Positions 13,127 to 64,000 of a DNA stretch of 64,000 nt are shown piece by piece. This DNA is from Methanocellales archaeon (lineage in GTDB: Archaea > Halobacteriota > JAWCLZ01): the NCBI GenBank assembly GCA_038850275.1, contig JAWCLZ010000003.1:28194-92193 (forward strand), in the 5' to 3' direction. How positions within the stretch are numbered: position 1 is the first letter of the stretch; each line of letters starts with the position of its first letter. The notes under the pieces are model-generated. The model was given only the letters and a program-made list of their open reading frames with translations. It searched no databases and had not been told where the DNA came from. Both the position numbers and the translations under genes were made by a program.

Positions 13127-14023
13127 TTAAATAAGTTCTCTTAAATAGATCTTGTGCCTCCCGAGTTTTCCCCCGTAGTTACCAGCTGATATCTTTACAA
13201 CTCCAGGGGTGTTAATCCCAGCATTTATTGCTTGCTTCATTGCTTGCTTCACTGCTTCCATTGTTATGCCATTTATCACTATCTCAGGAATGGATTTCAC
13301 GCCATTTGGAACTCTAGATTCAGAGCCTAGTTTTTGCTTTAAAGTGGGGCAGTATGGATGATTTGTGGTTGGACCTATCTCGGGATATTTTGTCTCAGGC
13401 TTTGAGCCAGCACTGCAGATGTCAAAAGAGGTAATTGCGCCTTCTATTTTTTCAATTGCCTTAACTGCTTTCTCCCCAACCTTCAATGCCGCATTGATAC
13501 TAGTGCAGAAATACCAGATGTTGCCTCCCATGATTCCCTTTGCATATCCTAAGTAGCGCTCGATTTTAAAGTCATGGCCCATCATAATAGGCACATTTAT
13601 AACCTTCCTTCCATAGTACTCCTCTTCCCATTCATATCCATCGCCGCAGTGGCCAACTTTATCCATTATATCGATTTTTTTCTCAGAATCAGTGGCATTG
13701 AAAACTGCTGTGGTGGGAACCACTAGTATCCCTTGTCTAATCCTCTTGCCTAATTCAACCTCCAAGGTCTTAACTGCTCCCTCCCCGCCTAATATCCAGA
13801 TCTGGATCAATGCGCCAACTCTTCCATCTGGGGTTTGCTTTTTAGTCAGCCATCCTTCAATTCCACCTTCACTCTGGCCAAGTACAGTCAGAGGCAATGC
13901 AGTTGAAGAGAAAGCTGCACGTTGGAGTAATTTTTTATTCCTAGCGGTTATAAGCAAGCGAGAATATAGGCCATCGAAGGCCTCGCAATAGGTATCCTCT
14001 ATAATAGCCGCCATATCAAACAC
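13127..14023 (-). CDS. ftr: Formylmethanofuran:tetrahydromethanopterin N-formyltransferase
   Basis: 298 aa. Collinear with Ftr from N-terminus (IEDTYCEAFDG...LITA) to C-terminus (ISAGNYGGKLGRHKIYLRELI). Confidence 0.9.
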   Translation of the reverse strand: MFDMAAIIEDTYCEAFDGLYSRLLITARNKKLLQRAAFSSTALPLTVLGQSEGGIEGWLTKKQTPDGRVGALIQIWILGGEGAVKTLEVELGKRIRQGILVVPTTAVFNATDSEKKIDIMDKVGHCGDGYEWEEEYYGRKVINVPIMMGHDFKIERYLGYAKGIMGGNIWYFCTSINAALKVGEKAVKAIEKIEGAITSFDICSAGSKPETKYPEIGPTTNHPYCPTLKQKLGSESRVPNGVKSIPEIVINGITMEAVKQAMKQAINAGINTPGVVKISAGNYGGKLGRHKIYLRELI

Positions 14024-15001
14024 CTAATATTCCCTAGTTATCATATAGTTTGCCAGCTGCGCTAGGAGTGTTCTTGCGTGAGTTTGAGGCAGTACCTCGA
14101 GTTTTTTCTTTCCCTTTTCAACCATGAGCTTAGCTTTTCTCATGGCATATGTAATTGAGCCAGCTTGTTCAAGTATTTCAACTGCCCTTCCTATCTCGCC
14201 CTCGCTGGCTAGTTTGGCAAGTAAATTGAGATCTATACCTTTGGATTGCGCGTGTATCGCAACTAGTGTTTTCTTCTTCTCAATCAAATCACTTCCCCGT
14301 GGTTTTCCAAGTATCTCTTGCGGGGCGATTAGATCTAGGACATCATCTCGTATTTGAAAACCAATTCCAGTTACCAAGCCTATTTCATAAAGCGCATTTA
14401 CCTGCATTTCACTTCCCCCTCCCAGGAGCCCACCTATTGAGGTTGATGCAGCGAATAGCATGCCTGTTTTCTTGCGCACCATCTCTAAGTATTCCTTAAT
14501 GCTCACTGTTTCGCGCTTTTCAAAATCAAGGTCAAGCCATTGTCCTTCGCAGATCTCAGTGAGTGCTCTTGAGAGAATATCTATGCTGGCAACGATTCTC
14601 TCTGGTTGAGCCTTGGATTTAGCTAGGATCTCAAAGGCCTTGCAACATAGGGTATCGCCAGCGAGTATTGCACTTGAGGTATCCCATTTCACGTGCACCG
14701 CTGGTATGCCACGCCTGAGCTCGTCTTCATCCATTATATCATCGTGTATCAAGGTGAAGTTGTGCACTAGTTCAACTGCAACTGCTGCTGGTATTACATT
14801 TTCCGAGTTGCCCAGAACTGCCTCTGCAGCGAGCATGAGCATCACTGGTCTCAATCTCTTTCCCCCTGCATCAAGCAAGTGCCTTGAGGCTCTATAGAGC
14901 TCCTTAGGATGGGAAATTGGGAGATATTTTTTAATTGCTTCGTTAACTAATGCTGTTCTCTTTTTCAATTCAGCTTTTAAATCAAGTTCTTCAACTTTCA
15001 A
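14024..15001 (-). CDS. idsA: Polyprenyl (geranylgeranyl) diphosphate synthase
   Basis: FARM motif LIHDDIMDEDELRRG and SARM motif FQIRDDVLD. Confidence 0.85.
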   Translation of the reverse strand: MKVEELDLKAELKKRTALVNEAIKKYLPISHPKELYRASRHLLDAGGKRLRPVMLMLAAEAVLGNSENVIPAAVAVELVHNFTLIHDDIMDEDELRRGIPAVHVKWDTSSAILAGDTLCCKAFEILAKSKAQPERIVASIDILSRALTEICEGQWLDLDFEKRETVSIKEYLEMVRKKTGMLFAASTSIGGLLGGGSEMQVNALYEIGLVTGIGFQIRDDVLDLIAPQEILGKPRGSDLIEKKKTLVAIHAQSKGIDLNLLAKLASEGEIGRAVEILEQAGSITYAMRKAKLMVEKGKKKLEVLPQTHARTLLAQLANYMITREY

Positions 15002-15009
15002 GGTTTCAC

Positions 15010-16347
15010 CTACTCAAGAATTAATTCCTGGCCATTTCTAAGCACATGCAGGGTATCCCCAAGGATATAACCTGCTTCTTCAGCCATTTCTGCATATGAG
15101 CTATTCATATATATATCGCCGTGTGAGGGAATCACATTCTCAGGGCTAACCATTCGCAAGAGTTCCCAGTGGTCCTCTCTATATGCATGTCCTGAAACAT
15201 GCACATTGGTATATACCCTCGCTCTCTTCATCTTTAGCTTTGTTTCAATTGCATATCTATTAGCTTCATTCACTGGATTTGGTATTACATTAGCGGAGAA
15301 GATCACTCTATCATCAGGCTCTATTTTAAAAGGCGAGTCTCCATTTGCAATCCTATTGAGAACCGAGCCAGGCTCGCCTTGATGTCCAGTTGTGATTAAA
15401 AGATAATTAGCCTTTCCATCTTCCATTACTTGCTTTAGCATGCGATCTATATCTTTCTTATCCCCGCAGATCTTAACTTCTTGGTGCTCGAGATAGCCCA
15501 TTTTAATAGCTGTGCCGTAGTATCTCTCCATAGATCTACCCAGTAGTACTGGCATTCTCCCAATCTCCAAAGCTGCATCAACTATGGATTTGATCCTAGC
15601 TATATGGGAGGAAAAAGTGGTTACTATTATCCCTTTTTTTAAATCCTCCACCCCAAGTAGTGCATCAAATATTAATTCCCTTGCCACGCGCTCGGAGGGG
15701 GTTTTGCCTGATTTGCCTGCGTATATGGTTTCAGTTATCATAGCTATAACTCCCTGCTTTGAAAGCTGTCTGAGGCGAGAAGTATCAGGTGGTTCGCCTA
15801 GAACTGGCAAGCGATCTAATTTGAAGTCATTTGCATATAGCAGTATTCCCCCAGGGGTATGCAGTGCCACGAATACGCAGTCAATTATACTATGCTGTAC
15901 TCTAATGAACTCAGCTTGAATATCTGGGCTAATTTGATAGAATTCACCTGCTTTAAGTGGAATAACTTTATTTTCCACTCCAAATTTCTTCTCAGCAGCG
16001 ATCTCATGCTCTATAAGTGCTGAGGTATAAGGAGTGGAGATAATTGGAGCTGCGTAGCGATGAGCTAGCTTAGGCAACGCTCCAATGTGATCTAGGTGTC
16101 CATGAGTGCATATGATTGCCTTGATCTTTCCAGCTATGTCTTTTATAACGCTATCATCTGGAATGGCACCTATTTTTATTAAATCCATGGAGTGGATTTT
16201 TTCGATCTCAACATCTTCGTGGATCAAGACTCTATCAAGCCTTAATCCCATGTCAAAGATCACTGCTTCATCGCCAATTCTAACTGCAGTCATATTGCGG
16301 CCTACTTCATCGTAGCCTCCTATTGCTATTATTCCAATTTCAGTCAA
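15010..16347 (-). CDS. Archaeal RNase J-like beta-CASP ribonuclease
   Basis: MBL HxHxDH motif (THGHLDHIG), beta-CASP region, about 445 aa. Confidence 0.8.
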   Translation of the reverse strand: MTEIGIIAIGGYDEVGRNMTAVRIGDEAVIFDMGLRLDRVLIHEDVEIEKIHSMDLIKIGAIPDDSVIKDIAGKIKAIICTHGHLDHIGALPKLAHRYAAPIISTPYTSALIEHEIAAEKKFGVENKVIPLKAGEFYQISPDIQAEFIRVQHSIIDCVFVALHTPGGILLYANDFKLDRLPVLGEPPDTSRLRQLSKQGVIAMITETIYAGKSGKTPSERVARELIFDALLGVEDLKKGIIVTTFSSHIARIKSIVDAALEIGRMPVLLGRSMERYYGTAIKMGYLEHQEVKICGDKKDIDRMLKQVMEDGKANYLLITTGHQGEPGSVLNRIANGDSPFKIEPDDRVIFSANVIPNPVNEANRYAIETKLKMKRARVYTNVHVSGHAYREDHWELLRMVSPENVIPSHGDIYMNSSYAEMAEEAGYILGDTLHVLRNGQELILE

Positions 16348-16353
16348 TTTGAT

Positions 16354-17439
16354 CTACCTCGTTGAATAGTGCTTTATATTAAATCCCCTTTGCTCTAGAA
16401 ATTCCCTAGTTTTGCCCGTTATCACTAGTTGAGCTTTCTTCAAATCTTCTATGCAAGCGCAGCCACTCAAGAACATTGCAACTTTAAGTTCTTCCATGAT
16501 TAACTTAAGTTTCTCAATCACAGCTACCTCGCTCTTGAGCGCTGGCTTTAGCAATGGCAAGGCAATTCCACAGAGAGAGGCACCTAAGGCAATTGCTTTT
16601 GCAGCATCCAAGCCTGATCTTATTCCACCTGTGGCAATCACGTGCATGTCCTCACTAACCTTTGACTCCACGATGCTAACCGCAGTTGGAATGCCCCAGT
16701 TCCAGAATAATTTACCAAGGCTTTCTCTAACTGCATTTTTCTCAGCAACTGCTCTATAATATTCCACTCCCGCAAAGCTAGTACCGCCTAAGCCTCCAAC
16801 GTCAATCGCGGCTACCCCTGCTTTTTTCAATTCCCAAGCAACTTTATGTGAGATCCCAGCACCGGTTTCTTTAACGATTATGGGAACTTTGCTGGCTTTG
16901 CATATCTCCTTAATCTCCGCGAGCACGCCTTTAGCATTAACATCCCCCTCAAGCTGAATTGCCTCCTGCAAGAAGTTGAGGTGAATTGCCATCGCATCTG
17001 CATCTATCATTTCAATTGCCCTCTCTATGCCCTCAATTCCATATTTCCTTAGCTGTGCAGCGCCAAGATTGCCATATATAAAAGCACTGGGGGCATAATC
17101 CCTAACCACTCTATATGTATCTTCTAAACTGCTGTTCTCGAGAGCAGCCCTCTGACTTCCAACTCCTATGCCTATTCCCAGTTCTTCAGCTGCTTTAGCA
17201 AGTGCTATGTTTACTTTTTTTGTATCCTTGTGCCCCCCAGTCATTGATGCTATTAGCAATGGTGCCTTAAATTCATGTTCCAAGAAGTTTATGGAATATT
17301 CAATGACATCTTTATCCACCTCTGGGAGTGCATTGTGAATTAGGTATATATCCTCAAATCCACTCCACTTTGACTCAACCTCTTTCTCAGCGCAGATATA
17401 TAGATGTTGAATTTTGCGATTTGATGTCTCGCGAGACAT
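16354..17439 (-). CDS. fni: Isopentenyl-diphosphate delta-isomerase, type 2 (FMN-dependent)
   Basis: IDI-2 TIM-barrel signatures. ATG at 17439 (MSRETSNRKIQHL...) is the likely start. The ORF track extends to an upstream GTG at 17457 that overlaps the tandem repeat. Confidence 0.85.
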   Translation of the reverse strand: MSRETSNRKIQHLYICAEKEVESKWSGFEDIYLIHNALPEVDKDVIEYSINFLEHEFKAPLLIASMTGGHKDTKKVNIALAKAAEELGIGIGVGSQRAALENSSLEDTYRVVRDYAPSAFIYGNLGAAQLRKYGIEGIERAIEMIDADAMAIHLNFLQEAIQLEGDVNAKGVLAEIKEICKASKVPIIVKETGAGISHKVAWELKKAGVAAIDVGGLGGTSFAGVEYYRAVAEKNAVRESLGKLFWNWGIPTAVSIVESKVSEDMHVIATGGIRSGLDAAKAIALGASLCGIALPLLKPALKSEVAVIEKLKLIMEELKVAMFLSGCACIEDLKKAQLVITGKTREFLEQRGFNIKHYSTR

Positions 17440-17447
17440 ATTCTTTG

Positions 17448-17566
17448 CTTTATTCACCTTTTATTAACGTACCTCTTGCTTTATTCACCTTTTATTAACG
17501 TACCTCTTGCTTTATTCACCTTTTATTAACGTACCTCTTGCTTTATTCACCTTTTATTAACGTACC
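17448..17566. repeat. Perfect tandem repeat, 31-bp unit x about 3.8
   Basis: CTTTATTCACCTTTTATTAACGTACCTCTTG is repeated head-to-tail at 17448, 17479, 17510 and 17541 (last copy partial). It fills the ipk-idi2 spacer. On the minus strand each unit carries TAATAA and AAAGGTGA. Confidence 0.9.
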
Positions 17567-18319
17567 AAAATTCTCCTCACCGCTTAAAAAGGCTTCTACA
17601 TATCCCTTTTTAGCTGCATTGAATATTCTAGACTTAATCCCTGCTTTAGCAAGCTCTATAAGCTCTTCAACCTTCCCAAGCATTCCCCCTGTTACATCGA
17701 TGTCTTTTGAATTCCATAGATTTAGTGCTTTAAAAGACTGAGGCGTTATCACTGGAATTAAAACGCCATTTTTATCAAGCACCCCTTCGACATCTGTGCC
17801 TAAGCCGATTTGTTTAGCTTTGAATTGCTTCGCTAGGTATACTACTATTTGATCGCCGGATAAAATACCCACGCCTTTTTTAACATCCATTGCTACATCG
17901 CCGTGGAGCACTGGGAGGATATCCTTCTCAAGCATTGTTTCTATAACTTTACATTCAAATGAAACTATCCTTCCATCTTTTAAAGTTGCAGAGGAAAAAG
18001 GATGAACTGGCGCTGCTTTAACGCCCTGTTCTAACAGTGCTTTGATGAAGCAGTCATTTAAATTCCTCACAGCCTCGTGGGTTATTAATACCCCTGCGAA
18101 GTTTTCATTCCTCAAACCCTGGGTTAGCTTATAGGCCTTTGCTTGAGGGTGACCTTGTGAACCCGCGCCATGCACGAGTATTAGATTCTCAGATTTTGAA
18201 GCAATCTCGCTAGCGATTCTCTTGATCTCCTCTAGCTTAAGCCCACCTGCAGTTTTCTTTTCAGTGAGCACGCTTCCACCAATTTTTAAAATCCTCAGCT
18301 TTTTCCCTTCTTTCATCAA
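17543..18319 (-). CDS. ipk: Isopentenyl phosphate kinase
   Basis: Amino-acid-kinase fold (LKIGGSVLT, LVHGAGSQGH). Confidence 0.85.
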   Translation of the reverse strand: MMKEGKKLRILKIGGSVLTEKKTAGGLKLEEIKRIASEIASKSENLILVHGAGSQGHPQAKAYKLTQGLRNENFAGVLITHEAVRNLNDCFIKALLEQGVKAAPVHPFSSATLKDGRIVSFECKVIETMLEKDILPVLHGDVAMDVKKGVGILSGDQIVVYLAKQFKAKQIGLGTDVEGVLDKNGVLIPVITPQSFKALNLWNSKDIDVTGGMLGKVEELIELAKAGIKSRIFNAAKKGYVEAFLSGEENFGTLIKGE

Positions 18320-18333
18320 TCATTACCCTTCTT

Positions 18334-19239
18334 TCATTCAACCATTACCCCTATATCAGTTGCTCTTGTTTCAATGGCTTTGAAGCCTAAAGCGGAGATG
18401 GCTGAGATTATATCTTGCACGCGTGCTCTAGAGCAAATTGCAAACATGCATCCACCGCCCCCTGCACCCGTAAGCTTCGCTCCATATGCCCCTGCTTTTC
18501 TCGCAACATTGCACATCGTTGAGAGCTGCTCTGTGCTAACTCCAAGAGCTTCAAGCAAGCTTTGATTCATATTCATAAGCCTCCCAACAGCTTGATAGTC
18601 AGCTTTCTCTAGATATTGCAAGCCAGTTTTTGAAATATTGCCAATTGTTTTAATAATCCCTTGAGTTATCTCTGGATATTCTAGGTTCAAACTTCTAACC
18701 CTAGCTATCATTTCCTTGGTTGAAGATGGCTTGCAGGAATCCCCTATTACCATGCCCACATCGATAGCGCTGAATCGCTTTCGCTCTGGAATTACCACGA
18801 TTCCTCCAAATGTTGATACATAGGTATCTGTGGGACTTGCTGCACCTTGTACTTCATATTCAACTTCATGTCCAAGTCTAGCTATCTCATCCAAGTTAAG
18901 CCCTAATTTAAATTCTGCATTAAGCGCAGCTAGGGTTGCAACTGTAACAGCAGCCGAGGATCCAAGATGTGCCTCCGCTGGTATTTGAGATTTTATTTCA
19001 ATTTTAACTTTATTTGATATCTTCTTGCATTCTTTGATCTTCTCAATTGCTTTAATTACATATGGGTAGCTCTCAGCTTTATAGTTGGAATGAATCTCAG
19101 CCTCAAAAGCCCCTGAGTTATGCACTTCTACTTTAACCTTAGTTCTCAGATCTATTGCGCATGCAACTGCATTCTCTCCATATACAACCGCGTGCTCCCC
19201 AAAAAAATAGATCTTGCCAGGAGCTGAGCAGACCTTCAT
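18334..19239 (-). CDS. mvk: Mevalonate kinase (GHMP kinase)
   Basis: PGKIYFFGEHAVVYG N-terminus, GHMP motif LGSSAAV, and C-terminal KLTGAGGGGC. Confidence 0.8.
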   Translation of the reverse strand: MKVCSAPGKIYFFGEHAVVYGENAVACAIDLRTKVKVEVHNSGAFEAEIHSNYKAESYPYVIKAIEKIKECKKISNKVKIEIKSQIPAEAHLGSSAAVTVATLAALNAEFKLGLNLDEIARLGHEVEYEVQGAASPTDTYVSTFGGIVVIPERKRFSAIDVGMVIGDSCKPSSTKEMIARVRSLNLEYPEITQGIIKTIGNISKTGLQYLEKADYQAVGRLMNMNQSLLEALGVSTEQLSTMCNVARKAGAYGAKLTGAGGGGCMFAICSRARVQDIISAISALGFKAIETRATDIGVMVE

Positions 19240-19249
19240 TTTGCGAACC

Positions 19250-20050
19250 TCATTTAATCAAGATTGCAGCATAGCCCACAACTTCAGAACGATCTGGAAT
19301 TATATCTCCACTGGTACCATATTTCAAAAGCTCTCCTCTCTTCGCTCCTAGATTTTTGCTTGCTTGTATGAGCGCTGCGATTGCGCCATATCCGCATACT
19401 GTTGCATTTTTTTCATAGAGCCTTCTATAAAACTCGGATATATCTAAATTCAAGATAGCCTCGATGAAGTATTTATCTTTGGCTCTCGCCACTTGATCTG
19501 GCTCATAGTGTGTGAAATCGCTTGATGCCAGTATTATCGCTTTTCTCCCGGTTTTTTTCACTGCATCACTAACTTCATTGCCTATTTCCATAGCACTCAT
19601 TTCATCCTGTAGAGCTATGCAAATTGGCACTATTTTAAAATCCTTAAATAAATACTGTAGAAATGGCAGTTGCACTTCAAGGGAATGCTCATATCTATGG
19701 GCATCTTCATCTTTATCGATGATCTCAAGGGGCATGGCATTTATGAAATCAAGATCAACCTCCACCTCGCCCAAGGGCGTGCTCCACTTCTCAGTGGAAA
19801 CAGCCACTCCTGAGCCCCTCCCCCTATGATTTGGGCCAATTATTATATATGTCTCAGCTTTTGGAAGTGCTTTATATGCATAAGCTGCCACTGGGCCTGA
19901 GAACATATAGCCAGCGTGAGGCACAACTGCACCTATGCAGGGCATTTCTTTAACATTTGCCCTTGATAGATGCTCTTCAATTTCTCGCACGAGCTCCTCC
20001 CTTCTATAGGGATAGAACTGCCCTGCAACTGCTGGTCTCCTCATTGCCAT
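19250..20050 (-). CDS. MEMO1-family protein (AmmeMemoRadiSam system protein B)
   Basis: N-terminal MRRPAVAGQFYP, the UPF0103/Memo signature. Confidence 0.8.
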   Translation of the reverse strand: MAMRRPAVAGQFYPYRREELVREIEEHLSRANVKEMPCIGAVVPHAGYMFSGPVAAYAYKALPKAETYIIIGPNHRGRGSGVAVSTEKWSTPLGEVEVDLDFINAMPLEIIDKDEDAHRYEHSLEVQLPFLQYLFKDFKIVPICIALQDEMSAMEIGNEVSDAVKKTGRKAIILASSDFTHYEPDQVARAKDKYFIEAILNLDISEFYRRLYEKNATVCGYGAIAALIQASKNLGAKRGELLKYGTSGDIIPDRSEVVGYAAILIK

Positions 20051-39694: not shown

Positions 39695-40402
39695 TCAAGC
39701 TACTTTTAAATTAATTTTTGAAATGCCGCAATATAGTTTTGTTCCAGGGAAAGTAATGATGGCTATTTTTCCCTCGCCATAGCTAACATTTAACCCTAGG
39801 GTTTCATTGAAATATCTGCCCCATTCTCTATAGTAATTGCTTTTAATTATCACAGTAGTGTTATTGGTATAAATCGGAGAGGCTAATTTACTGGCTTTTG
39901 CTATTATTCTAATCACTCCTTCTCCAGCCTTTGAGTCCGAGCCAGCTAGCTCTATTACTGGTAAATATGAAACATTGCCCTTTGAAGCTCTAGGTGGCGC
40001 TAGAATTAAGGTGCTTTCCTCATATAAATATTTCACGAAGACAGCGCTGTTTTCATAGGCTATCACACGGTCAGCTAGCTCATACTCCACTGAGCCCAAG
40101 GAATATCGAGTTCCTTCGATTTCTATCCAGCTTTCGTTTACTAGAGAAATGCATCCATCTTTTATTTTTACCTCGCTCGTTCTCGATGGAGCCTGTGCGA
40201 GTGCCACTTCATCGATATTTGCCTTGAGCACTGAAAAGCTCTGCTCCATTTCACTAAGATGCGTCGACTTCTCAGCTGCATCGAGTACAGGCAAGCCATG
40301 GGTGTAAAAAAGCATTCCTGCCATGAGCACTGTGGAGAGTATTAATATATATCCAATTGCATTTGTAAGCGCGTCTTCCATCTTCAACATATTTTGCCTC
40401 AC
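39695..40402 (-). CDS. Pilin-like protein with an N-terminal TM/class-III-like signal (operon gene 5)
   Basis: N-terminus KMEDALTNAIGYILILSTVLMAGMLF, then a beta-rich domain. Start overlaps the stop of the upstream gene. Confidence 0.45.
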   Translation of the reverse strand: MRQNMLKMEDALTNAIGYILILSTVLMAGMLFYTHGLPVLDAAEKSTHLSEMEQSFSVLKANIDEVALAQAPSRTSEVKIKDGCISLVNESWIEIEGTRYSLGSVEYELADRVIAYENSAVFVKYLYEESTLILAPPRASKGNVSYLPVIELAGSDSKAGEGVIRIIAKASKLASPIYTNNTTVIIKSNYYREWGRYFNETLGLNVSYGEGKIAIITFPGTKLYCGISKINLKVA

Positions 40403-41859
40403 GAGCTGTATTTAATGAATACTTGAACGCAGTCCCAAGTTATTTCATCAAGCTTATTTTTCTTCGATATATAGACCCTCAAGTTATAAGCTGTGTTATT
40501 ACTCGGGCTTGCAGTTTCATTGAACCAGTAGGTTTTAGCTCCATTTAGCTCTATGGATTTATCTGAGATCAAGCCTGAAACTTCGAGGTGCAGGTTATCA
40601 CTGCCTCCATTCTGAGTGTGGCTGCTGATATTTATTGCTATATCGACTTCAAAGCCATGCATACCGCTGGGAAAGACTGGTGTAAATGAATAAATTTTTT
40701 CAAGAGAACCGCCTGATGGCGTGAAGCTCGCTGGTTCTAAGTCGCTGCTATTCCAAGTACCTATAATTGGTATAGTTACATTCACTACGTTGGATAGCGC
40801 TCCCTCAACTCCACTGTTGTTAACAACGGTAACTGCGTAGTAATATGTCATTCCCTGAGTTTTAACACTTGAATCTAGGTAGCTTGCGGGTGAGTCAAAC
40901 CAAGAGTTCGCTAGAAGCGTGGCTGTACCTAGATTTGAGTCATTTATGGGCTCGGTGCTTCTATAGATTTTATAGCTTGCCACTGATCCTATGGCTGGCT
41001 TTGTCCATCTAAGAAGTACGTCGGGATATGTTAAAACCACTGCATTTAAATCGCTAACATTACCAGGGGGTAGTCCAATTACTTTATATACCCTTAAATC
41101 ACTCGCAGTGTTGCCAGTTCGATCATAGGCTATGGCTTTAACTCTATATTCCCCATTTGGATATCTCTCGGTATTCCACTCCCATTGATAGGGATATTCA
41201 GCTGTGTAAACAAGGGTATCATTTAAGTAGTACTCCACTTTAACTACATATATATTATCCACTGCATTTACCCTTAGTTTCACTGTTTGTGAAATAGTTG
41301 AGCCATTTGCAGGACTAGGTGCAGTGAATGCGATTACCGGTGGCGTAGTGTCTATTGATGCATCGCATTCTCCAATAGTAATTACGCCAGTTGTGCGATT
41401 GAATCTCAAGATCTTTGTTTTTTCCGCGCTGGATATACTGCAATTTGCCACCGCTATTAATGGACTGATTGGTATTTTCACCTCTATATTGCGATTGACC
41501 TCAGGAACTAGTTTCACTAATCCTCTTTGTATTGCTATGGTGTAGAAGCTACCTCCTGCTTTGCTGGGAATTTCGACTTGAGAGGTTAATTCAATTATTT
41601 CTCCAGCTATGCTCGCGGTATTTATAACTCCATCAAAATCTTGGATTTTTGAGACTAAATCGCTGCCAATTGAACTGAGCTCGCGATATATAGCTATGTC
41701 AGTGGTGCTTATTAATATGCCTTGAAAGGATAGCGCTATGATGGAGAGTAAAACTGCAGAGATAGAGAAGGTTAATAGCAATTCAACTGTTACTGTCAAT
41801 GCATTTTCATCTTTCATATATATCCACCTTGATTTTTTCCTCGAGCTTAAGGATTCCAT
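40399..41859 (-). CDS. Large surface protein with a pilin-like N-terminus and FN3/Ig-like domains (operon gene 4)
   Basis: N-terminus KDENALTVTVELLLTFSISAVLLSII. It has many N-glycosylation sequons, and YKVIGLPPGNVSDLNAVVLTYPDVLLRWTKPAIGSVASYKIYRS is FN3-like. Confidence 0.5.
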   Translation of the reverse strand: MESLSSRKKSRWIYMKDENALTVTVELLLTFSISAVLLSIIALSFQGILISTTDIAIYRELSSIGSDLVSKIQDFDGVINTASIAGEIIELTSQVEIPSKAGGSFYTIAIQRGLVKLVPEVNRNIEVKIPISPLIAVANCSISSAEKTKILRFNRTTGVITIGECDASIDTTPPVIAFTAPSPANGSTISQTVKLRVNAVDNIYVVKVEYYLNDTLVYTAEYPYQWEWNTERYPNGEYRVKAIAYDRTGNTASDLRVYKVIGLPPGNVSDLNAVVLTYPDVLLRWTKPAIGSVASYKIYRSTEPINDSNLGTATLLANSWFDSPASYLDSSVKTQGMTYYYAVTVVNNSGVEGALSNVVNVTIPIIGTWNSSDLEPASFTPSGGSLEKIYSFTPVFPSGMHGFEVDIAINISSHTQNGGSDNLHLEVSGLISDKSIELNGAKTYWFNETASPSNNTAYNLRVYISKKNKLDEITWDCVQVFIKYSS

Positions 41860-42232
41860 CTTGGTATACTAAAGTGAGATTGAGATAGTCTAACGTTTGA
41901 TTTAGGTAATCTAAGTGGATTTCAACAGCTTCACCTCTCGCTGCATATAGCAAGGTAGTTGCGTTTACATAGGAATTGAAGTAGGAATGAAAGGTTGAAT
42001 TGAAAAAATCGCTACTGGTTTTATTTGCTTTTAAAACTGCATTTCTTGCCTCGCGAATTGTCATTTCCTGAAGGGATTTGAAGTGCTGCTTGCTTGGATA
42101 AAGTCCCGTCCCTGGAATGTTGCTTGTCAAGATTACATCGTTGAGTAGAATGGTTATTAATAGTAGGCTTAGCAACATGATGAATGCACTTAAGAGGATC
42201 ATTTGTCCCTCTCCATCTTTTTCCACATTCAT
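41807..42232 (-). CDS. Type IV pilin-like protein (operon gene 3)
   Basis: N-terminus GEGQMILLSAFIMLLSLLLITILL, with G-Q at the putative class III cleavage site. Confidence 0.45.
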   Translation of the reverse strand: MNVEKDGEGQMILLSAFIMLLSLLLITILLNDVILTSNIPGTGLYPSKQHFKSLQEMTIREARNAVLKANKTSSDFFNSTFHSYFNSYVNATTLLYAARGEAVEIHLDYLNQTLDYLNLTLVYQDGILKLEEKIKVDIYER

Positions 42233-42234
42233 GG

Positions 42235-42795
42235 CTACATCCTCCAGAGGGTGAGTTTAACTAGCACTAGGTTGTAAAAATCTGAGGTGCTATCTATATC
42301 TTTAATTGGATTGTTTTTATTGATTTTATCGCTATCGTAAATAACCACGGATTCATATACTGTAACCGCGTTATCAGAAGGCTCTCCATTCCAGATTATT
42401 GCTCCCGTTGCGAGATCCCATTTTGATGTGTTTATATATATTATTTCTAAATCATAGGCTATGCCTCGATTTGAGAGCGTGGAGATGAGGAGTTTTTCAA
42501 ATTCACTAAGATTCAATTTCCCCTGTAAGTTATTCTCTCGAGTCCCAGTCCAGTTTAATATGTTGCTTTTCAATGGCGAGCTGATATTCAAGGGATCTGG
42601 AGAGTAGTTAGATGTAGTTAATAAATCTTGACCAAGCATTGCTAAGTAAAACTCGATTTGCTGATTCGATGCAGAGGAGGTAAGGGGAGTTAGTGGGGTG
42701 GCTTTGGTTATGAATAGGAGTGCTGCTAGGATTAATGAAGCAGCTGCAAGTGCTTCTAAGGTGTAGAGTTGTCCAGATTCGTTTAATTTCACCAT
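42235..42795 (-). CDS. Type IV pilin-like protein (operon gene 2)
   Basis: N-terminus ESGQLYTLEALAAASLILAALLFI, a G-Q...E motif. Confidence 0.45.
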   Translation of the reverse strand: MVKLNESGQLYTLEALAAASLILAALLFITKATPLTPLTSSASNQQIEFYLAMLGQDLLTTSNYSPDPLNISSPLKSNILNWTGTRENNLQGKLNLSEFEKLLISTLSNRGIAYDLEIIYINTSKWDLATGAIIWNGEPSDNAVTVYESVVIYDSDKINKNNPIKDIDSTSDFYNLVLVKLTLWRM

Positions 42796-43292
42796 ATCAT
42801 CACCAATAGTATCAATCTTTCTTCCAATTCACTTGCGAGCACTACTCTCTTGGCTTGAGCAACTGTTGAGAAATCTGGTGGCGTTTTTCCAACCTTGAGC
42901 ACTGCCTGTGAATTTTCTAGGTATATGCTGTCATTTAAAAATCGAAGCTCTAGGTATAGTTCGTATTTTCTATTTGCTGTTACTAGTCCAAGTTCATTTA
43001 TTTTACTCTCATAGGAATTGCTTAGTGAACTATTCAACTCTCTAGCTTTTTCAAGTGAGATCAAGCCGGGGTTTTGAGGATTTACTGCAAGTCCTCTTGG
43101 GTCTTCAATTAAAAAGGCTGCTATTCTATTTGCTAGGAAATTCACATTCTCTGATTCAGATTGAAATGGAACGAAAAGTCCAGTTATGCTTTGAAAAAGA
43201 AATAAAAATGCCAGTGAGAATATGATTATTCCAGCTATGAAATCCAAGCTAATTTGAGCACAGGAGTCTAGTCTCTTAATCATTTCTTTCAC
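42789..43292 (-). CDS. Type IV pilin-like protein, DUF361-type signal (operon gene 1)
   Basis: N-terminus RLDSCAQISLDFIAGIIIFSLAFLFLF, matching the archaeal QxSxEF-type class III signal. Confidence 0.5.
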   Translation of the reverse strand: MKEMIKRLDSCAQISLDFIAGIIIFSLAFLFLFQSITGLFVPFQSESENVNFLANRIAAFLIEDPRGLAVNPQNPGLISLEKARELNSSLSNSYESKINELGLVTANRKYELYLELRFLNDSIYLENSQAVLKVGKTPPDFSTVAQAKRVVLASELEERLILLVMIW

Positions 43293-57780: not shown

Positions 57781-58611
57781 TTAAATTGGGGAAATTATCC
57801 TTCTGAAATTAGAGAGAATTTTACGCTCATAAACTTCCACATTCAGTTTTCCATTTAAAAAAAGCTCATCAGTGGTGTAGAAGAGCTTGACACATTCCCA
57901 GATCAAGTTGAAATCCTGTTTTAATTTATTTGCATATTTCATCAATTCACTTGCTGGCTTTGGATCTATAAGTTTTTTCATCAATTTCACTTCCTTTGCA
58001 ACAGGTACTTTTTTAACTCCGCTGAATGGATTTAGATATTTATTCAATGCATAGTCTATGAAGTAAGATTTCAAGCTGCATTCCTCGCATTTGCTTGAAA
58101 TACCGTGTGGGCAGATGCATAGCTTTGGCAAGCCATAGCTGTTACTCAAGCGCTTTTCAAGCATGAGATCTAAACCAGCGAGGGCAAGAGCTTTCCACCT
58201 CAGCTCTAGCGGTATTGCCTCGATTTGCTCAAAAAGCGCTTTAAATGTCAAATTGCAATGCTGTTTAACCATTTCTGCTTCTTCTTCAGCCAACTTTTTT
58301 TCACGCATTCTCCTTTCAATATGACTATGAAGCTGGTCATAGACTAATGCAAGTGCATCTTTATAAGTACGTGCGTACCACTCCTTCCCCCCTCTGGTTT
58401 TACGTGATATTTCAAGGAATTCCTTTTCCAGTAGCCTTGAGATTATATATCGAACTGTGCCATAGGATATGCCAAGCCTGCTTTGAATTTCCTTACAGCA
58501 TTTAAGCTCAAAGCTCGCTTGCTCAAGAATGCTTTCATATTGAAAGGGTTTTATCTCACTCCTCCCGCTGTAAATTTCGTATATGAAATGGGCAAGCTCC
58601 ATAAAATCCAT
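57781..58611 (-). CDS. HTH-domain protein with a central Cys cluster (CICPHG...CEEC), putative regulator upstream of nrdJ
   Basis: N-terminal wHTH-like segment (LGISYGTVRYIISRLLEKEFLEISRKTRGGKEWYART). Confidence 0.4.
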   Translation of the reverse strand: MDFMELAHFIYEIYSGRSEIKPFQYESILEQASFELKCCKEIQSRLGISYGTVRYIISRLLEKEFLEISRKTRGGKEWYARTYKDALALVYDQLHSHIERRMREKKLAEEEAEMVKQHCNLTFKALFEQIEAIPLELRWKALALAGLDLMLEKRLSNSYGLPKLCICPHGISSKCEECSLKSYFIDYALNKYLNPFSGVKKVPVAKEVKLMKKLIDPKPASELMKYANKLKQDFNLIWECVKLFYTTDELFLNGKLNVEVYERKILSNFRRIISPI

Positions 58612-60484: not shown

Positions 60485-60835
60485 TTATTCGATACATTGC
60501 TCGAGCAATCCAGTTGGCTTTAGTCTAGCAAGCATCTCTTCATATTTCTTCTTGTCCCCAAGCATGTCGTTCAAAAGCCTTTCTTGAGCATGAGTGCCTT
60601 TTTTCACTCTAACCTCAACTTCTTTGCCAAGCTTTTTCTCCAATGCATATTTAATAACTACCCCAATCAACCCGCCCATGGGGCAAAAAGGTGAAGTTGG
60701 TTTGAACTCGATTCTAGCTTTATCACCCTCTAAAGAGATATCCTCAGCTTCCACGATTTTCAAATCGAGAACCGACATGGGATGCTCTGGGTCGTAGACT
60801 TTTTTAAGAATATCTAGAATTTCCTTTTTATCCAT
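60485..60835 (-). CDS. DUF59/MIP18-family Fe-S cluster assembly protein
   Basis: VYDPEHPMSVLDLKIV...FCPMGG. Confidence 0.75.
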   Translation of the reverse strand: MDKKEILDILKKVYDPEHPMSVLDLKIVEAEDISLEGDKARIEFKPTSPFCPMGGLIGVVIKYALEKKLGKEVEVRVKKGTHAQERLLNDMLGDKKKYEEMLARLKPTGLLEQCIE

Positions 60836-60962
60836 TTTTAAGCCTCTAATTTACTTCTCCTCTAAATATATTTATATCTTTCAAATAATTTGTTCGTATA
60901 TTTACGAACATTCGATTAATATCGAATAATTTTATATATTCTTTTTGCTTTTATATTTTACT

Positions 60963-62267
60963 ATGGAAATATTCGCCACCAAAAAAGGAATAATAGCAGT
61001 TAAAAATCCAGTTCGAATTCAAATTTTAGAGGCACTTCAAAAATCCGATTGCACATTCGAAGAACTCGTAGAGTGCGTTCAAAAAGCCAAGTCAACGGTT
61101 TCAGTACATCTTGAAAAAATGCAGAAAGATGGATTAATAAGCTCCAGCTTAGATAAGAAAGACAAACGCAAGAAGATCTATCGCTGCATCGCAACCTATA
61201 TTGGCACGACAACTGCAAGTAAATATGAACTTACTGAACAGATAAAAGAAGATATTCGCTTAAATGTAAGCGAAATGAATCGCTTTTTAAATGCAATTCG
61301 AGAATTAAAAACTGGAGATCATATTTGCTTTCTCTATGAAACAGAGGAGGAAAGAAATAAAGCACTTGTGCCCTACTTCGAAGAAGCTCTGAATAAAAAT
61401 GAGCAATGCCTCTACATTACTTTTGGTGAACAAGCTAAAGCAAAAAAAGTCCTAGACTTGAACTCGAAGCGGCTTGATGTAATTATCCAAAAAAATTTCA
61501 ATCCCGAGAACTTGCTAGCCTTAATAAAAAGAGAATTAGAATTAGCACTTGACAAGGGATATAGTGGACTGAGGATAGCTGTTGAAGTAGCTGAAAATAA
61601 TTTAAATAAACTTCTTGAATATGAATCCAAGCTCAACCTCTATCTCCCGAGTTCAAAAGCACTCTTGATTTGCCAATATAGTAGAAATAAATTCCCCCCA
61701 CAAGTGCTCTTGGAAATCCTCAAGATGCATGCATTTGTTATTGCAATGGACACCATATGCCGAAATTTCTACTACATACCTTCAAAAGGTGGAGAAGAAG
61801 AACTAAATAACTATCTTTTTAACCTAATGGAAATCGAAAAACTCCATAATCAAAAGCCATTTAACTATATGCGCTCTTTATTCCGAGCAATGCGCTACAT
61901 AACTCAAGCAATAGGGATAGATATAAAGCCAGTGCTTAAGCTCACCGGACGGGAAGTAGGCAGAGAACTCGCTGGATTAATGCATGCTACCGAGCCCATT
62001 GCTTTAATAAAAGAGATCGCAAGTTTCTGGGAATCGAATAAAATGGGGAAGCTCACCATACTTAAATCACAGCCTCCCATTGAGATTATAATTGAAAATT
62101 GCTATGAATGCGGTGGAATGCCCAACGTTGGCACTACGCTTTGCGCACTAGATGAAGGACTTATAAGTGCAATCCTAGATGAGAAACTAGGTGTTAAAAG
62201 CACTGTAAGGGAAAAAGAATGCTGGGGAACTGGATATAACCACTGTCGCTTCACAATCGAATGGTAG
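60963..62267 (+). CDS. Transcriptional regulator with HTH, MEDS and V4R domains
   Basis: N-terminal ArsR-like HTH, MEDS-like core (GDHICFLYETEEERNKALVPYFEEALNKNEQCLYITF), and a C-terminal V4R-like Cys pattern (CYECGGMPNVGTTLCALDEG...CWGTGYNHCRFTIEW). Confidence 0.6.
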   Translation: MEIFATKKGIIAVKNPVRIQILEALQKSDCTFEELVECVQKAKSTVSVHLEKMQKDGLISSSLDKKDKRKKIYRCIATYIGTTTASKYELTEQIKEDIRLNVSEMNRFLNAIRELKTGDHICFLYETEEERNKALVPYFEEALNKNEQCLYITFGEQAKAKKVLDLNSKRLDVIIQKNFNPENLLALIKRELELALDKGYSGLRIAVEVAENNLNKLLEYESKLNLYLPSSKALLICQYSRNKFPPQVLLEILKMHAFVIAMDTICRNFYYIPSKGGEEELNNYLFNLMEIEKLHNQKPFNYMRSLFRAMRYITQAIGIDIKPVLKLTGREVGRELAGLMHATEPIALIKEIASFWESNKMGKLTILKSQPPIEIIIENCYECGGMPNVGTTLCALDEGLISAILDEKLGVKSTVREKECWGTGYNHCRFTIEW

Positions 62268-62493
62268 GGAAAATTATTTTTGCTAGTGAAATAATTAAGA
62301 AATAGATGCAGCCAGAGACAACAAGGGTAATTATAGTACTAGGTTTTCTATTTGCAGTACTTGCTATTTCTATTCTAAAGATGGAGACCTTAGTGAGAGC
62401 CATTTTAAAGCGTTTTTAGCAATTTTTTAGTGATTGCAAATCAAAAAAGCTAAGTATATATCATACAAGCATTATCTGCGGGTGGAATAAATT

Positions 62494-63477
62494 ATGCAGG
62501 ATAAAACAGCAATAACCTTGAAGAGTCTTGAAGCAATAGAGGCCATAGCAGTCATAGGATATATATACTATGTACTCACTGGGAGATATGCATTTGCACT
62601 CATCGCTCCCAAAACAGCGATATTTCAAGTCTTCCTAGGTATATTTTTCATCATATTCATCATAGGAATAATCAATTTATTATATCGCTGGACACTTCCA
62701 CTCCATGGAAGTGGATTTTCAAAAATTCTAACTAGCTTTCTACGCTGGTTCAAAAACAATATATTAAGCTGGAAAATTTTTTTAATACTCGAAGCACTTG
62801 TGATTCAAGGTTTTCTGCAGAGCAGAGTATTCAAGCAGAGTAAGCTCCGTTGGTTTATGCACATGACACTTGCCTGGGGCTGCTTGATTTTCCTAGTGCT
62901 CTATATAATTGATATTAAAGAGATAATTGAAAAACTTCCACTTGGAGGCGTGCTTACCCAAGCGATTGATGTCACGATTATACTCATCTTTTTACTCACA
63001 ATTATAGGTGCATTAACAGCAATTGTTAAAAACTGGAATAGATCGCCTGAGATCATGGTTATATTGATAATAGCTGGGATAACAATGTGGTACATAATCT
63101 CCCAAGGTGAAGCTACTTTTAATTATCTATATAGCACTGGTCTATTCATCTATGAAAAATTACTTTACAATTTAGCAGCTGTATTGGTTTTCATTGGATT
63201 AACCATAGTATTCATTCGCAGGCGATCAAAGGAAGTTAAGCCCCTCACCGACTTCAAAATAGATATAAGACCAATTATATTAATCACAATATTATCTGCA
63301 ACTGGCTTCGCTGGCTTCTATCTTCAATATATCTCAACACTTGCTCACGAGATAGTTATACACGTGCACTTCATCACCACCTTCGGGGTAATAGCCTACT
63401 TCCCATTCAGCAAATTCCTACATATAGCCACTGCAAAACTAAGCTATATCCTAAATGCAGTGGAGGTGCATCATTAA
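62494..63477 (+). CDS. Polytopic membrane protein, candidate cytochrome-b-like (HdrE/DsrM/NarI-type) anchor
   Basis: About 8-9 TM helices with His residues inside them (WFMHMTLAWG, LAHEIVIHVHFITTFG). Its stop overlaps the start of the next gene (TAATG). Confidence 0.45.
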   Translation: MQDKTAITLKSLEAIEAIAVIGYIYYVLTGRYAFALIAPKTAIFQVFLGIFFIIFIIGIINLLYRWTLPLHGSGFSKILTSFLRWFKNNILSWKIFLILEALVIQGFLQSRVFKQSKLRWFMHMTLAWGCLIFLVLYIIDIKEIIEKLPLGGVLTQAIDVTIILIFLLTIIGALTAIVKNWNRSPEIMVILIIAGITMWYIISQGEATFNYLYSTGLFIYEKLLYNLAAVLVFIGLTIVFIRRRSKEVKPLTDFKIDIRPIILITILSATGFAGFYLQYISTLAHEIVIHVHFITTFGVIAYFPFSKFLHIATAKLSYILNAVEVHH

Positions 63478-64000
63478 TGCAAGCTAAATTCCAGCCCAAG
63501 AATTTAAGCTTCAAGCAAATGATCGAAGTCGACGCTTGCATGCGCTGCAATGAATGCTTGAAATTCTGCCCAGTTGTGGATATATATGGAAATGAAGTTA
63601 GCCCAAAAGGTAAAATCCACTTCTTCCGAGAGTTGATTAAGTCCAATGATTTAATTGCAAAATTGCTAGGCAGAGGGAAAAATGTAACCGAGGAGGAGGT
63701 CAATAAATATACTCAGAATTTATACATCTGCACCTCTTGCTTGCAATGCAGAGAAGTTTGCGAAGCAGGTATAAATACCGTTCCAATGTGGGAAGCAATG
63801 CGAGCGGATTTAGTTGAGAGAGGCAACGGCCCAATGCCCGCGCATAGAGCAATAAGAGAGAGAGTGGAGAAATTAGGTAATCCCTATAATGAGCCACCAG
63901 AGAAGCGCCTTGCTTGGATTCAGCCTGGGATGAAAATTGCTGAGAAAGCGGATTTGCTTTTCTTCGTTGGCTGCACCTCTGCACTTAGAATGACGATGCT
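63477..64000 (+). CDS. HdrD/DsrK/GlpC-like Fe-S protein (2x[4Fe-4S] plus CCG domain), 5' part; gene runs off the window end
   Basis: CMRCNECLKFCP and CTSCLQCREVCE ferredoxin motifs followed by a CCG-domain start (FFVGCTSA). Absent from the ORF track because it is truncated. Confidence 0.7.
   Translation, partial: MQAKFQPKNLSFKQMIEVDACMRCNECLKFCPVVDIYGNEVSPKGKIHFFRELIKSNDLIAKLLGRGKNVTEEEVNKYTQNLYICTSCLQCREVCEAGINTVPMWEAMRADLVERGNGPMPAHRAIRERVEKLGNPYNEPPEKRLAWIQPGMKIAEKADLLFFVGCTSALRMTM

Follow-up and report, generated by a model that had tools for sequence, protein, structure and literature searches.

The locus described here occupies positions 60485 to 64000 of a 64-kb stretch of DNA (64,000 nucleotides; contig JAWCLZ010000003.1, positions 28,194 to 92,193 of the forward strand) from a Methanocellales archaeon, and this whole stretch is called the window below. 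The listing of open reading frames (ORFs) and direct reading place there a 116-aa gene on the minus strand followed, on the plus strand, by the genes of a 434-aa regulator, a 37-aa ORF, a 327-aa membrane protein and an Fe-S protein. The divergent 116-aa gene and the regulator gene are separated by 127 bp, and the same-strand gaps measure 38 bp between the regulator gene and the 37-aa ORF and 74 bp between the latter and the membrane gene. An earlier interpretation made from the letters alone (the sequence-only reading) had proposed a substrate-responsive regulator controlling a membrane-bound heterodisulfide reductase (Hdr)-like module in a methanogen-type host. The host type is supported by the label "Methanocellales archaeon" that NCBI gives to identical proteins, the one identical to the regulator being on record as "MEDS domain-containing protein [Methanocellales archaeon]", and by the ftr gene at 13127-14023 (-) of the window. 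As for the locus itself, we consider it probable that it consists of three adjoining units, namely an autoregulated MsvR redox sensor, a 37-aa peptide and an hdrE-like/hdrD operon with its own promoter. Homologues of the regulator were collected by a word-indexed search over 5.8 billion clustered proteins, and the gene neighborhood was compared with that of loci L001 to L009, where L001 to L004 are 2 to 21 kb long, L008 represents a sister lineage without MEDS and L007 is more distant.

The gene at 60963..62267 (+) encodes a 434-aa protein which, by Pfam, NCBIfam, alignment and AlphaFold2 (AF2) analysis, is an MsvR-family regulator with an internal MEDS insertion. To our knowledge, MsvR is the only characterized redox-sensing transcription factor specific to methanogens. 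Three Pfam matches, all exceeding their gathering scores, cover an ArsR-type winged helix-turn-helix (HTH) at residues 15 to 61 (61005..61145 (+); PF01022, HTH_5, E 1.1e-11), a MEDS domain at residues 119 to 256, followed by a helical linker (61317-61730 (+); PF14417, E 7.3e-28, 97.9 bits against a gathering score of 29.8, profile positions 1 to 160 of 161), and a V4R domain at residues 374 to 433 (62082..62261 (+); PF02830, E 5.1e-15), which confirms the fusion of these three domains described in the sequence-only reading. The NCBIfam equivalog for MsvR (NF053755) is matched with 236.2 bits against a cutoff of 220 (E 3.9e-70), the match being split into two parts, one on each side of the MEDS block. 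The V4R domain carries Cys380, Cys383, Cys394, Cys420 and Cys428, all five of which are invariant in 14 aligned homologues, and its CYECGGMP motif corresponds to CX2CX3P in the MsvR alignment, while AKSTVSVHL, in the region of the recognition helix, is nearly invariant among MsvR homologues. In the MsvR family, three conserved V4R cysteines are required for redox-dependent DNA binding (Isom et al. 2013, PMC3729527), the His of the CX2CX3H motif is a Pro in other homologues, and the operator TTCGTAN4TACGAA or TTCGN7-9CGAA is found upstream of every msvR gene (PMC3729527).

The AF2 model of the regulator, built from a 44-sequence alignment, shows three confident domains joined by low-confidence linkers (predicted local distance difference test [pLDDT] 84, predicted template modeling score [pTM] 0.50). 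In Foldseek searches, the N terminus matched NolR and the C-terminal domain resembled the V4R protein MJ1460 and the phenol-sensor domains of PoxR/MopR. When compared with the MsvR proteins of Methanothermobacter thermautotrophicus (MTH1349) and Methanosarcina acetivorans (MA1458), the protein is alike in its N-terminal ArsR-type winged HTH and in its C-terminal V4R cysteines, but a MEDS block stands between the two domains, and it reaches 434 aa where canonical members have about 245 aa and the typical two-domain size is about 240 to 260 aa. Since the insertion of about 190 aa accounts for this length, we file the regulator as a variant and not as a typical member; on profile and alignment evidence it belongs to the MsvR family and is a new architectural variant of it. 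The view that it senses hydrocarbons or methyl compounds finds no support in these results, as a cysteine-rich V4R domain of MsvR type, together with published MsvR boxes, marks a family of redox sensors.

Among the matches of the search, about 36 are canonical HTH and V4R proteins of 239 to 259 aa, and only four 90%-identity clusters, the one of the window included, have the HTH-MEDS-V4R architecture. In an alignment that includes 10 canonical MsvRs, each about 245 aa long, the four long proteins share one clean insertion of about 190 aa, which in the window regulator corresponds to residues 106 to 295 (61278..61847 (+)) and is absent from the canonical proteins. Identity among the four fusion proteins is 61-70% in the inserted block, about 90% in the HTH part and 82-84% in the V4R part, which indicates that the block is under looser constraint though conserved. 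An assembly chimera was rejected as the origin of the fusion, since the four clusters come from independent NCBI, Logan and JGI assemblies and their blocks are 61-70% identical. A 246-aa MsvR without MEDS (P0005) is 72-75% identical to the window regulator on both flanks of the insertion and lies in the gene order of the window: aldehyde dehydrogenase (Aldedh), UPF0058, FeS_assembly_P (-), msvR (+) and the 37-aa ORF. All other MsvRs lack MEDS, which is most simply read as a gain by this sub-lineage, the domain having been inserted in place between HTH and V4R.

In the AF2 model, the block forms an alpha/beta domain over residues 115 to 270, with pLDDT mostly above 85, and the nearest structures retrieved by Foldseek are FlaH (4yds), KaiC and RAD51 paralogues (E 1e-4 to 1e-3), in line with a published classification that places MEDS among inactivated KaiC-like domains (PMC5847659). 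A Walker A motif (GxxxxGK[ST]) was not seen in the MEDS block by inspection. With an identity of only about 33%, the nearest MEDS sequences are those of PAS/HisKA-type archaeal proteins. Like the MEDS regulators DcmR, EtnR2 and RsbA, the window protein has a full-length PF14417 match and a fusion of MEDS to a DNA-binding or signaling module; in those proteins, however, MEDS is a terminal sensor domain, whereas here it is an internal insertion in a complete two-domain regulator. The sensing of hydrocarbon derivatives by MEDS is itself a prediction from genomic context. A MEDS-bearing MsvR and its MEDS-less orthologue at the same locus offer a natural comparison for the role of MEDS, and the same pair is suited to asking how the V4R signal reaches the HTH.

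Two MsvR operators lie between the regulator and the divergent gene. Box 1 (TTCGTATATTTACGAA, 60893..60908 (+)) is an exact match to the published TTCGTAN4TACGAA motif (PMC3729527), and box 2 (TTCGATTAATATCGAA, 60911..60926 (+)), found by motif search, has the form TTCGN8CGAA. Spaced by 2 bp, they are the only TTCGN8CGAA matches in the 64 kb, against 0.45 expected. In L001 to L004, exact TTCGN7-9CGAA matches occur only at the same promoter position, and in the MEDS-less L008 the boxes align at the same spot, the left half of box 1 being degenerate. When one mismatch was allowed, the search of the window returned 18 matches against 16.4 expected, which is noise. Directly downstream of the boxes, the TATA-like element TTTTATATAT (60930..60939 (+)), about 25 nt before the ATG and nearly invariant across five loci, would serve as the promoter of the regulator gene, and its distance to the ATG implies an mRNA that is leaderless or has a very short 5' untranslated region. 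The position of the boxes relative to this element mirrors the layout of M. acetivorans PmsvR, and the presence of two TTCGN8CGAA operators directly upstream of the regulator's own TATA box is a further likeness to the characterized MsvR systems. A scan for sigma-70 promoters and intrinsic terminators, which is inapplicable to archaea, gave counts no higher than those in shuffled sequence, and one of its "terminators" is operator box 1.

The divergent gene (60485..60835 (-)) encodes a 116-aa SufT/MIP18-like Fe-S assembly protein, for which PF01883 is recorded on the orthologues and NCBIfam gives sub-threshold matches to SUF_assoc (6.7e-8, 32.8 bits against a cutoff of 143.4) and SufT (1.5e-6). 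An A/T-rich TATA-like element, read from the sequence at 60864..60878 (-), about 35 to 40 nt upstream of the ATG at 60835, is its putative promoter. Since the boxes sit between the two divergent TATA-like elements, we propose that the SufT-like promoter is repressed as well, and the gene is likely to be a second target of the operators. A divergent arrangement with a stress-related gene is also found for msvR/fpaA in M. thermautotrophicus, with the difference that the neighbor here is a SufT-like Fe-S assembly gene and not fpaA-rlp-rub.

At the other end of the locus, the final A of the membrane gene's stop codon (TAA, 63475-63477) is also the first base of the ATG at 63477, where the Fe-S gene starts, and this one-base TAATG overlap is kept in the relatives; the earlier description of a polytopic, His-containing membrane protein overlapping an Fe-S gene is thus borne out. 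The window holds the 5' part of the Fe-S gene (63477..64000 (+), 174 codons), which runs past the window and is deemed an hdrD orthologue. This part contains two CxxCxxCxxxC [4Fe-4S] motifs, CMRCNECLKFC and CTSCLQCREVC (Fer4_8, E 1.3e-8), and the first Cys of CCG domain 1, so that the Fe-S half of the proposed Fe-S/CCG protein is seen in the window, whereas the CCG half is represented there by that first Cys only. The CCG domains fall outside the window, past base 64000, and were taken from orthologues with 93% identity to the window fragment across the 170 aa in common. In the orthologues, whose full length is 399 to 412 aa, both CCG motifs are complete (GCTSAL...ELCCG...CAGC and PCHIG...MCCGAGGG...CPFC).

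Methanosarcina HdrD proteins share 43-45% identity with the 399-aa orthologue across 98-100% of its length (E ~1e-109), and for the 174 residues encoded in the window the identity to M. thermophila HdrD is 41%. Outside the lineage, the best function-named homologues are all HdrD or disulfide reductase of Methanosarcina/Thermoplasmata (43-47% over 95-100%), the other named matches being the generic "(Fe-S)-binding protein" and "Fe-S oxidoreductase". By these comparisons the protein is of the HdrD type, with a predicted activity as reductase of the coenzyme M-coenzyme B heterodisulfide (CoM-S-S-CoB), and of the two alternatives in the earlier assignment to an HdrD/DsrK type only the former is retained, DsrK being rejected at 72.1 bits against an equivalog cutoff of 400. 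TfrB was rejected as well (265 bits against a cutoff of 385, with profile positions 126 to 487 only and the N-terminal SdhB-like [2Fe-2S] part absent), as were GlpC, LdhH and TmcB, which score well below their curated cutoffs. Among solved structures, mycobacterial EtfD comes closest (9OJN, E 8.3e-37); this identity was also rejected, since both CCG motifs of the orthologues keep the Cys-Cys doublet, as in HdrB, with ELCCG aligning to ETCTG of EtfD, and since two separate genes stand here in place of a fused polypeptide. The methanophenazine-dependent HdrED of Methanosarcinales, a membrane enzyme of the kind by which methanogens regenerate their two key cofactors, shows the same gene order, membrane subunit and then hdrD, and its HdrD is alike in the two [4Fe-4S] motifs and the two complete CCG motifs, as read from the orthologues, at 41-45% identity. 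In one comparison locus (L003, 12543-13753), hdrD is broken into ORFs of 102 aa and 296 aa, and a U32 peptidase gene (17031-19449) is in three pieces; both are likely sequencing errors and not pseudogenes, since the contig name states a coverage of 4.1.

The membrane gene (62494..63477 (+)) encodes a 327-aa protein with about 8 to 9 hydrophobic segments and His residues at positions 71, 123, 285, 290, 292, 310, 326 and 327, which we regard as a very diverged member of the NarI/HdrE family. In the database it carries the locus tag QXJ68_02340 and the label "hypothetical", and only five 90% clusters of it exist. When 1.84 billion representatives were scanned exhaustively with HMMER, the family appeared as one representative, with the next match at E 1.8e-10; this protein, P0050, itself carries PF02665 at 39.7 bits. 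The remote profile matches are NarI-domain proteins, many of them fused to ferredoxin domains and some named "heterodisulfide reductase subunit E" by IMG, and an 18-sequence profile matches E. coli NarI (1Q16_C, E 1.3e-10) and M. smegmatis EtfD (9ojn_A, E 2.5e-6). The cytochrome-b-like character attributed to the protein is therefore upheld by profile-level homology to the NarI family.

Residues R119, W120, H123, G235, R243, D257, G271, H292, P304, K307 and H310 are invariant across relatives that are only 20-28% identical, and within the family H123, H292, H310, R242/R243, D257 and PFSKFxH are invariant; in the remote relatives R242 is nearly invariant and all the others are invariant too. 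In the alignment, H123 corresponds to H78 of EtfD, in a part where NarI is not covered, H310 to H241 of EtfD and H205 of NarI, H292 to H223 of EtfD and H187 of NarI, and R242 to R137 of EtfD. The EtfD structure has a single heme b with H78 and H241 as its ligands and R137 bound to its propionate, and a third histidine is kept nonetheless (PMC13083937). H123 and H310, with R242, are thus candidate heme b-binding residues, and the most economical reading is that of a single-heme, EtfD-like variant of HdrE.

Compared with HdrED, the membrane partner is alike in NarI/HdrE family membership, but its identity to IMG-annotated HdrE is only about 25%, and it has 327 aa and about 8 to 9 segments against about 260 aa and 5 transmembrane helices, and carries only three of the four NarI-type histidines. 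With EtfD (M. smegmatis, PDB 9OJN; Rv0338c in M. tuberculosis), to which, among solved structures, both proteins of the pair are closest in sequence, it shares a NarI-like domain with the predicted bis-His heme b residues, and the order of the domains is the same, with two [4Fe-4S] domains and two CCG domains following. EtfD, however, combines both modules in a single polypeptide that has a long disordered tail, whereas the pair consists of two separate proteins, and the first CCG domain of EtfD, which has a single Cys, holds a linear [3Fe-4S] cluster in an enzyme that oxidizes electron-transferring flavoprotein (ETF) and reduces menaquinone (PMC13083937), whereas both CCG motifs here carry the Hdr-type Cys-Cys. 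The likeness to E. coli NarI (PDB 1Q16, chain C) lies in the H-x17-H spacing of helix V with PFS[KR]xxH; in contrast to NarI, the window protein has no NarGH partners, lacks the equivalent of NarI H66 and has extra helices. In one lineage (L009, 4844-6001, and L004, from 11564 onward), the membrane protein has a Lys/Glu-rich N-terminal extension (MEQDKEKNKDKGKEKEKDKEK...) and reaches 385 aa in total.

Between the regulator and the pair lies a single-transmembrane small ORF of 37 aa (MQPETTRVIIVLGFLFAVLAISILKMETLVRAILKRF, 62306..62419 (+)), which is kept in nine sequences (the window and eight loci), the MEDS-less L008 among them, and is called as a gene in related loci. Its substitutions by codon position are 172:66:490, a strong bias to the third position, and an NCBIfam search returned no family match. 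It is probably a real small membrane protein, as judged from its conservation, and possibly a subunit of the Hdr complex. Downstream of it, a BRE/TATA-like element (AAAAAAGCTAAGTATATAT, 62443..62461 (+)) is conserved in five close loci; its sequence AAAAAAGCTAAGTATATA lies about 35 nt before the ATG of the membrane gene, and the core GCTAAGTAT.TAATA is kept even in L007, at 63% identity; the element is probably the promoter of the pair itself. In relatives (L002, 9400-9470), this element is flanked by an inverted repeat, GCAGAT...ATCTGC, of which the window has a copy with one mismatch (62436-62479) and which could be an operator for some other regulator.

The question whether the regulator acts on the pair was approached through these features. 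The 226-bp stretch ahead of the membrane gene (62268-62493) was searched for MsvR boxes and has none, be it exact or with 1 mismatch. A transposase-like fragment precedes the pair in L007, where neither msvR nor the small ORF is seen within about 590 nt; the N-terminal part of the transposase-like ORF, with which the contig starts (1-300 (-)), contains what we take to be an HTH of the IS630 transposase type (...PKLRLLCAIHRKEGKSIDDIA...GRPPKLT...). Its location directly upstream of the pair means either that the regulator is not adjacent there or that an insertion sequence element broke the assembly. The L008 contig extends only 140 nt past the small ORF, and this tail shows no resemblance to the N terminus of the membrane protein. 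The operators at the regulator's own promoter only, the pair's own element, the MEDS-less orthologue and L007, taken together, leave adjacency as what speaks for control, and direct control of the pair by the regulator, as proposed in the sequence-only reading, is in our opinion unlikely.

In the three-unit arrangement that we favor, the regulator would act as a dimer which, by analogy with M. acetivorans MsvR, binds in its thiol-reduced form to the two TTCGN8CGAA palindromes abutting its TATA box and represses its own promoter and probably also the divergent SufT-like promoter. Oxidation of the conserved V4R cysteines would release it from the DNA, and the inserted MEDS domain may either feed in a second signal, from a small ligand or from a partner protein, or provide a new surface for oligomerization. 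The hdrE-like/hdrD pair would form a translationally coupled operon for a membrane-bound HdrED-type heterodisulfide reductase, in which electrons from a membrane carrier are predicted to pass to one bis-His heme b (H123/H310) on the cytoplasmic side and then, through two cubane [4Fe-4S] clusters, to two noncubane CCG clusters that would reduce CoM-S-S-CoB.

Several observations count against parts of this arrangement. For the regulator, we know of no system in which the function of MEDS has been established, and transcriptional read-through from the regulator gene into the pair is possible, as all genes are on the same strand with gaps of 38 and 74 bp. For the Fe-S protein, the best NCBIfam match is TfrB, albeit below its cutoff, and the CCG/HdrD superfamily includes enzymes acting on other substrates. 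For the membrane protein, the single-sequence Pfam match to NarI (PF02665) reaches 17.4 bits against a gathering score of 22.9 and covers the C-terminal 37 residues only, PDB sequence searches with the protein alone and with a 5-sequence profile gave no match, and the AF2 model, from 5 sequences, had a pLDDT of 39.5 and was not used. About two extra transmembrane helices lie inside the NarI core, in addition to an extra N-terminal hydrophobic segment. As to the heme ligands, three of the four NarI-type histidines are kept (H123, H292 and H310), whereas the fourth ligand position, the distal one in helix II, is a Tyr (Y137) in all five family members, and many relatives do have a fourth His there, 14 residues after the first. 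Finally, cultured Methanocellales are classed among the methanogens without cytochromes, and the host carries the label of this order. For Methanocella genomes, an HdrD homologue but no HdrE has been reported (Sakai et al. 2011, PMC3146512), and the cultured members of the order are reported to be without HdrE (PMC3146512).

These points have to be set against the alternatives. Were MEDS and/or V4R of the regulator the sensor for a substrate of methyl or hydrocarbon type, with direct switching of the downstream Hdr-like module, one would understand why regulator, small ORF and pair stand on the same strand with short gaps, in an order common to the window, L002, L003/L006, L005 and L009, with T-rich stretches as the sole terminator-like signals between the genes, and why MEDS occurs in regulators of C1/C2 compound metabolism (DcmR and EtnR2), a metabolism that is in part linked to coenzyme M. 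The conserved order carries little weight, though, because the genomes that share it are close relatives (65-83% identity of the membrane protein), and the substrate-sensing proposal conflicts with a protein that falls within the MsvR family with V4R cysteines of the redox-sensing type, with operators confined to its own promoter, with a separate BRE/TATA-like element for the pair, with the MEDS-less orthologue at the same locus and with the regulator-free neighborhood in L007; we consider it rather improbable. About equally improbable, in our estimation, is that the pair is some other CCG-type oxidoreductase, be it EtfD-like, DsrMK/HmeCD-like or a module for thiol:fumarate, lactate or glycerol-3-phosphate. 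This would fit the position of EtfD, in which both modules are fused, as the closest solved structure for the Fe-S and the membrane part, the rank of TfrB among the NCBIfam matches, the three NarI histidines, as in single-heme EtfD, and the low identity of the membrane partner to annotated HdrE. It fits less well with the full-length identity of the orthologue to Methanosarcina HdrD, next to which DsrK, GlpC, LdhH, TmcB and TfrB are much weaker, or with the Hdr-type Cys-Cys in both CCG motifs, which EtfD lacks in the first, and no genes for ETF, Dsr or a fumarate reductase flavoprotein adjoin the pair in any locus.

The membrane protein could also be free of heme and serve as an anchor or scaffold for HdrD, with electrons coming from a cytoplasmic or other partner. 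Such a supply has been proposed for HdrD in the cytochrome-free Methanocellales and Methanomassiliicoccales, and the Tyr at the fourth ligand position, the extra helices and the HdrE gap of the cultured members would all agree with it, but H123, H292, H310, R242/R243, D257 and PFSKFxH are invariant in the family and, with the exception of the nearly invariant R242, also in relatives of 20-28% identity, and H123, H310 and R242 are the very set that binds heme in the EtfD structure (PMC13083937); we see only a slim chance for it. A more far-reaching version of the three-unit reading, to which we likewise attach a slim chance, holds that an uncultured, probably thermophilic, Methanocellales-labelled lineage runs a heme-dependent HdrED-type reductase with a single-heme HdrE of 8 to 9 segments and possibly the 37-aa transmembrane subunit, its expression being tied, through read-through or an unrecognized operator, to a dual-input MsvR that would combine V4R thiol redox with a MEDS signal. 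Were this the case, the missing membrane partner of HdrD would be identified in at least part of the Methanocellales, and the regulator would be the first MsvR to couple the sensing of redox stress to energy conservation.

The pair deserves attention irrespective of the regulator, as the HdrD of Methanocellales has been without a known membrane partner since 2011 and is here translationally coupled to a "hypothetical" membrane protein. With its predicted EtfD-type heme-binding residues, this protein bears on cytochrome-dependent energy conservation among class II methanogens. Its family, whose function is predicted, is confined to a handful of related metagenome-assembled genomes, and no close relative in cultured Methanocellales was found in the HMMER scan of representatives, so that we see in it a lineage-specific partner of HdrD and not a general answer to the HdrE gap.

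Further genes in the window and in the comparison loci are recorded here in their own right. Downstream of hdrD, L002 (11701-17916) and L009 (7276-13215) hold hisB (IGPD), DUF169, a major facilitator superfamily (MFS) transporter, NikR, a large U32 peptidase and an Fe/Mn superoxide dismutase, so that an oxidative-stress gene is found at a distance of about 6 kb from the MsvR locus. That stretch shows no MsvR box. Upstream of the locus, a 276-aa protein encoded at 57781-58611 (-), between ribonucleotide reductase and aldehyde dehydrogenase, has an HTH-looking segment (RLGISYGTVRYIISRLLEKEFLE), has no Pfam hit recorded on its orthologues and is kept in L002, L004, L008 and L009. The window also holds mevalonate-pathway genes, AFOR and ribonucleotide reductase. 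In the run at 13127-19239 (-), ftr is directly followed by genes for a polyprenyl synthetase, an RNase J-like beta-CASP protein, an FMN-dependent dehydrogenase (IDI2-like), an amino-acid-kinase-fold protein (isopentenyl phosphate kinase-like) and a GHMP kinase, and these genes look like an archaeal mevalonate-pathway cluster. At 39695-43292 (-), DUF7287, DUF7288 and DUF7289 proteins are clustered with a Big_7 Ig-domain protein in what may be an archaeal pilin-like or surface-structure operon.

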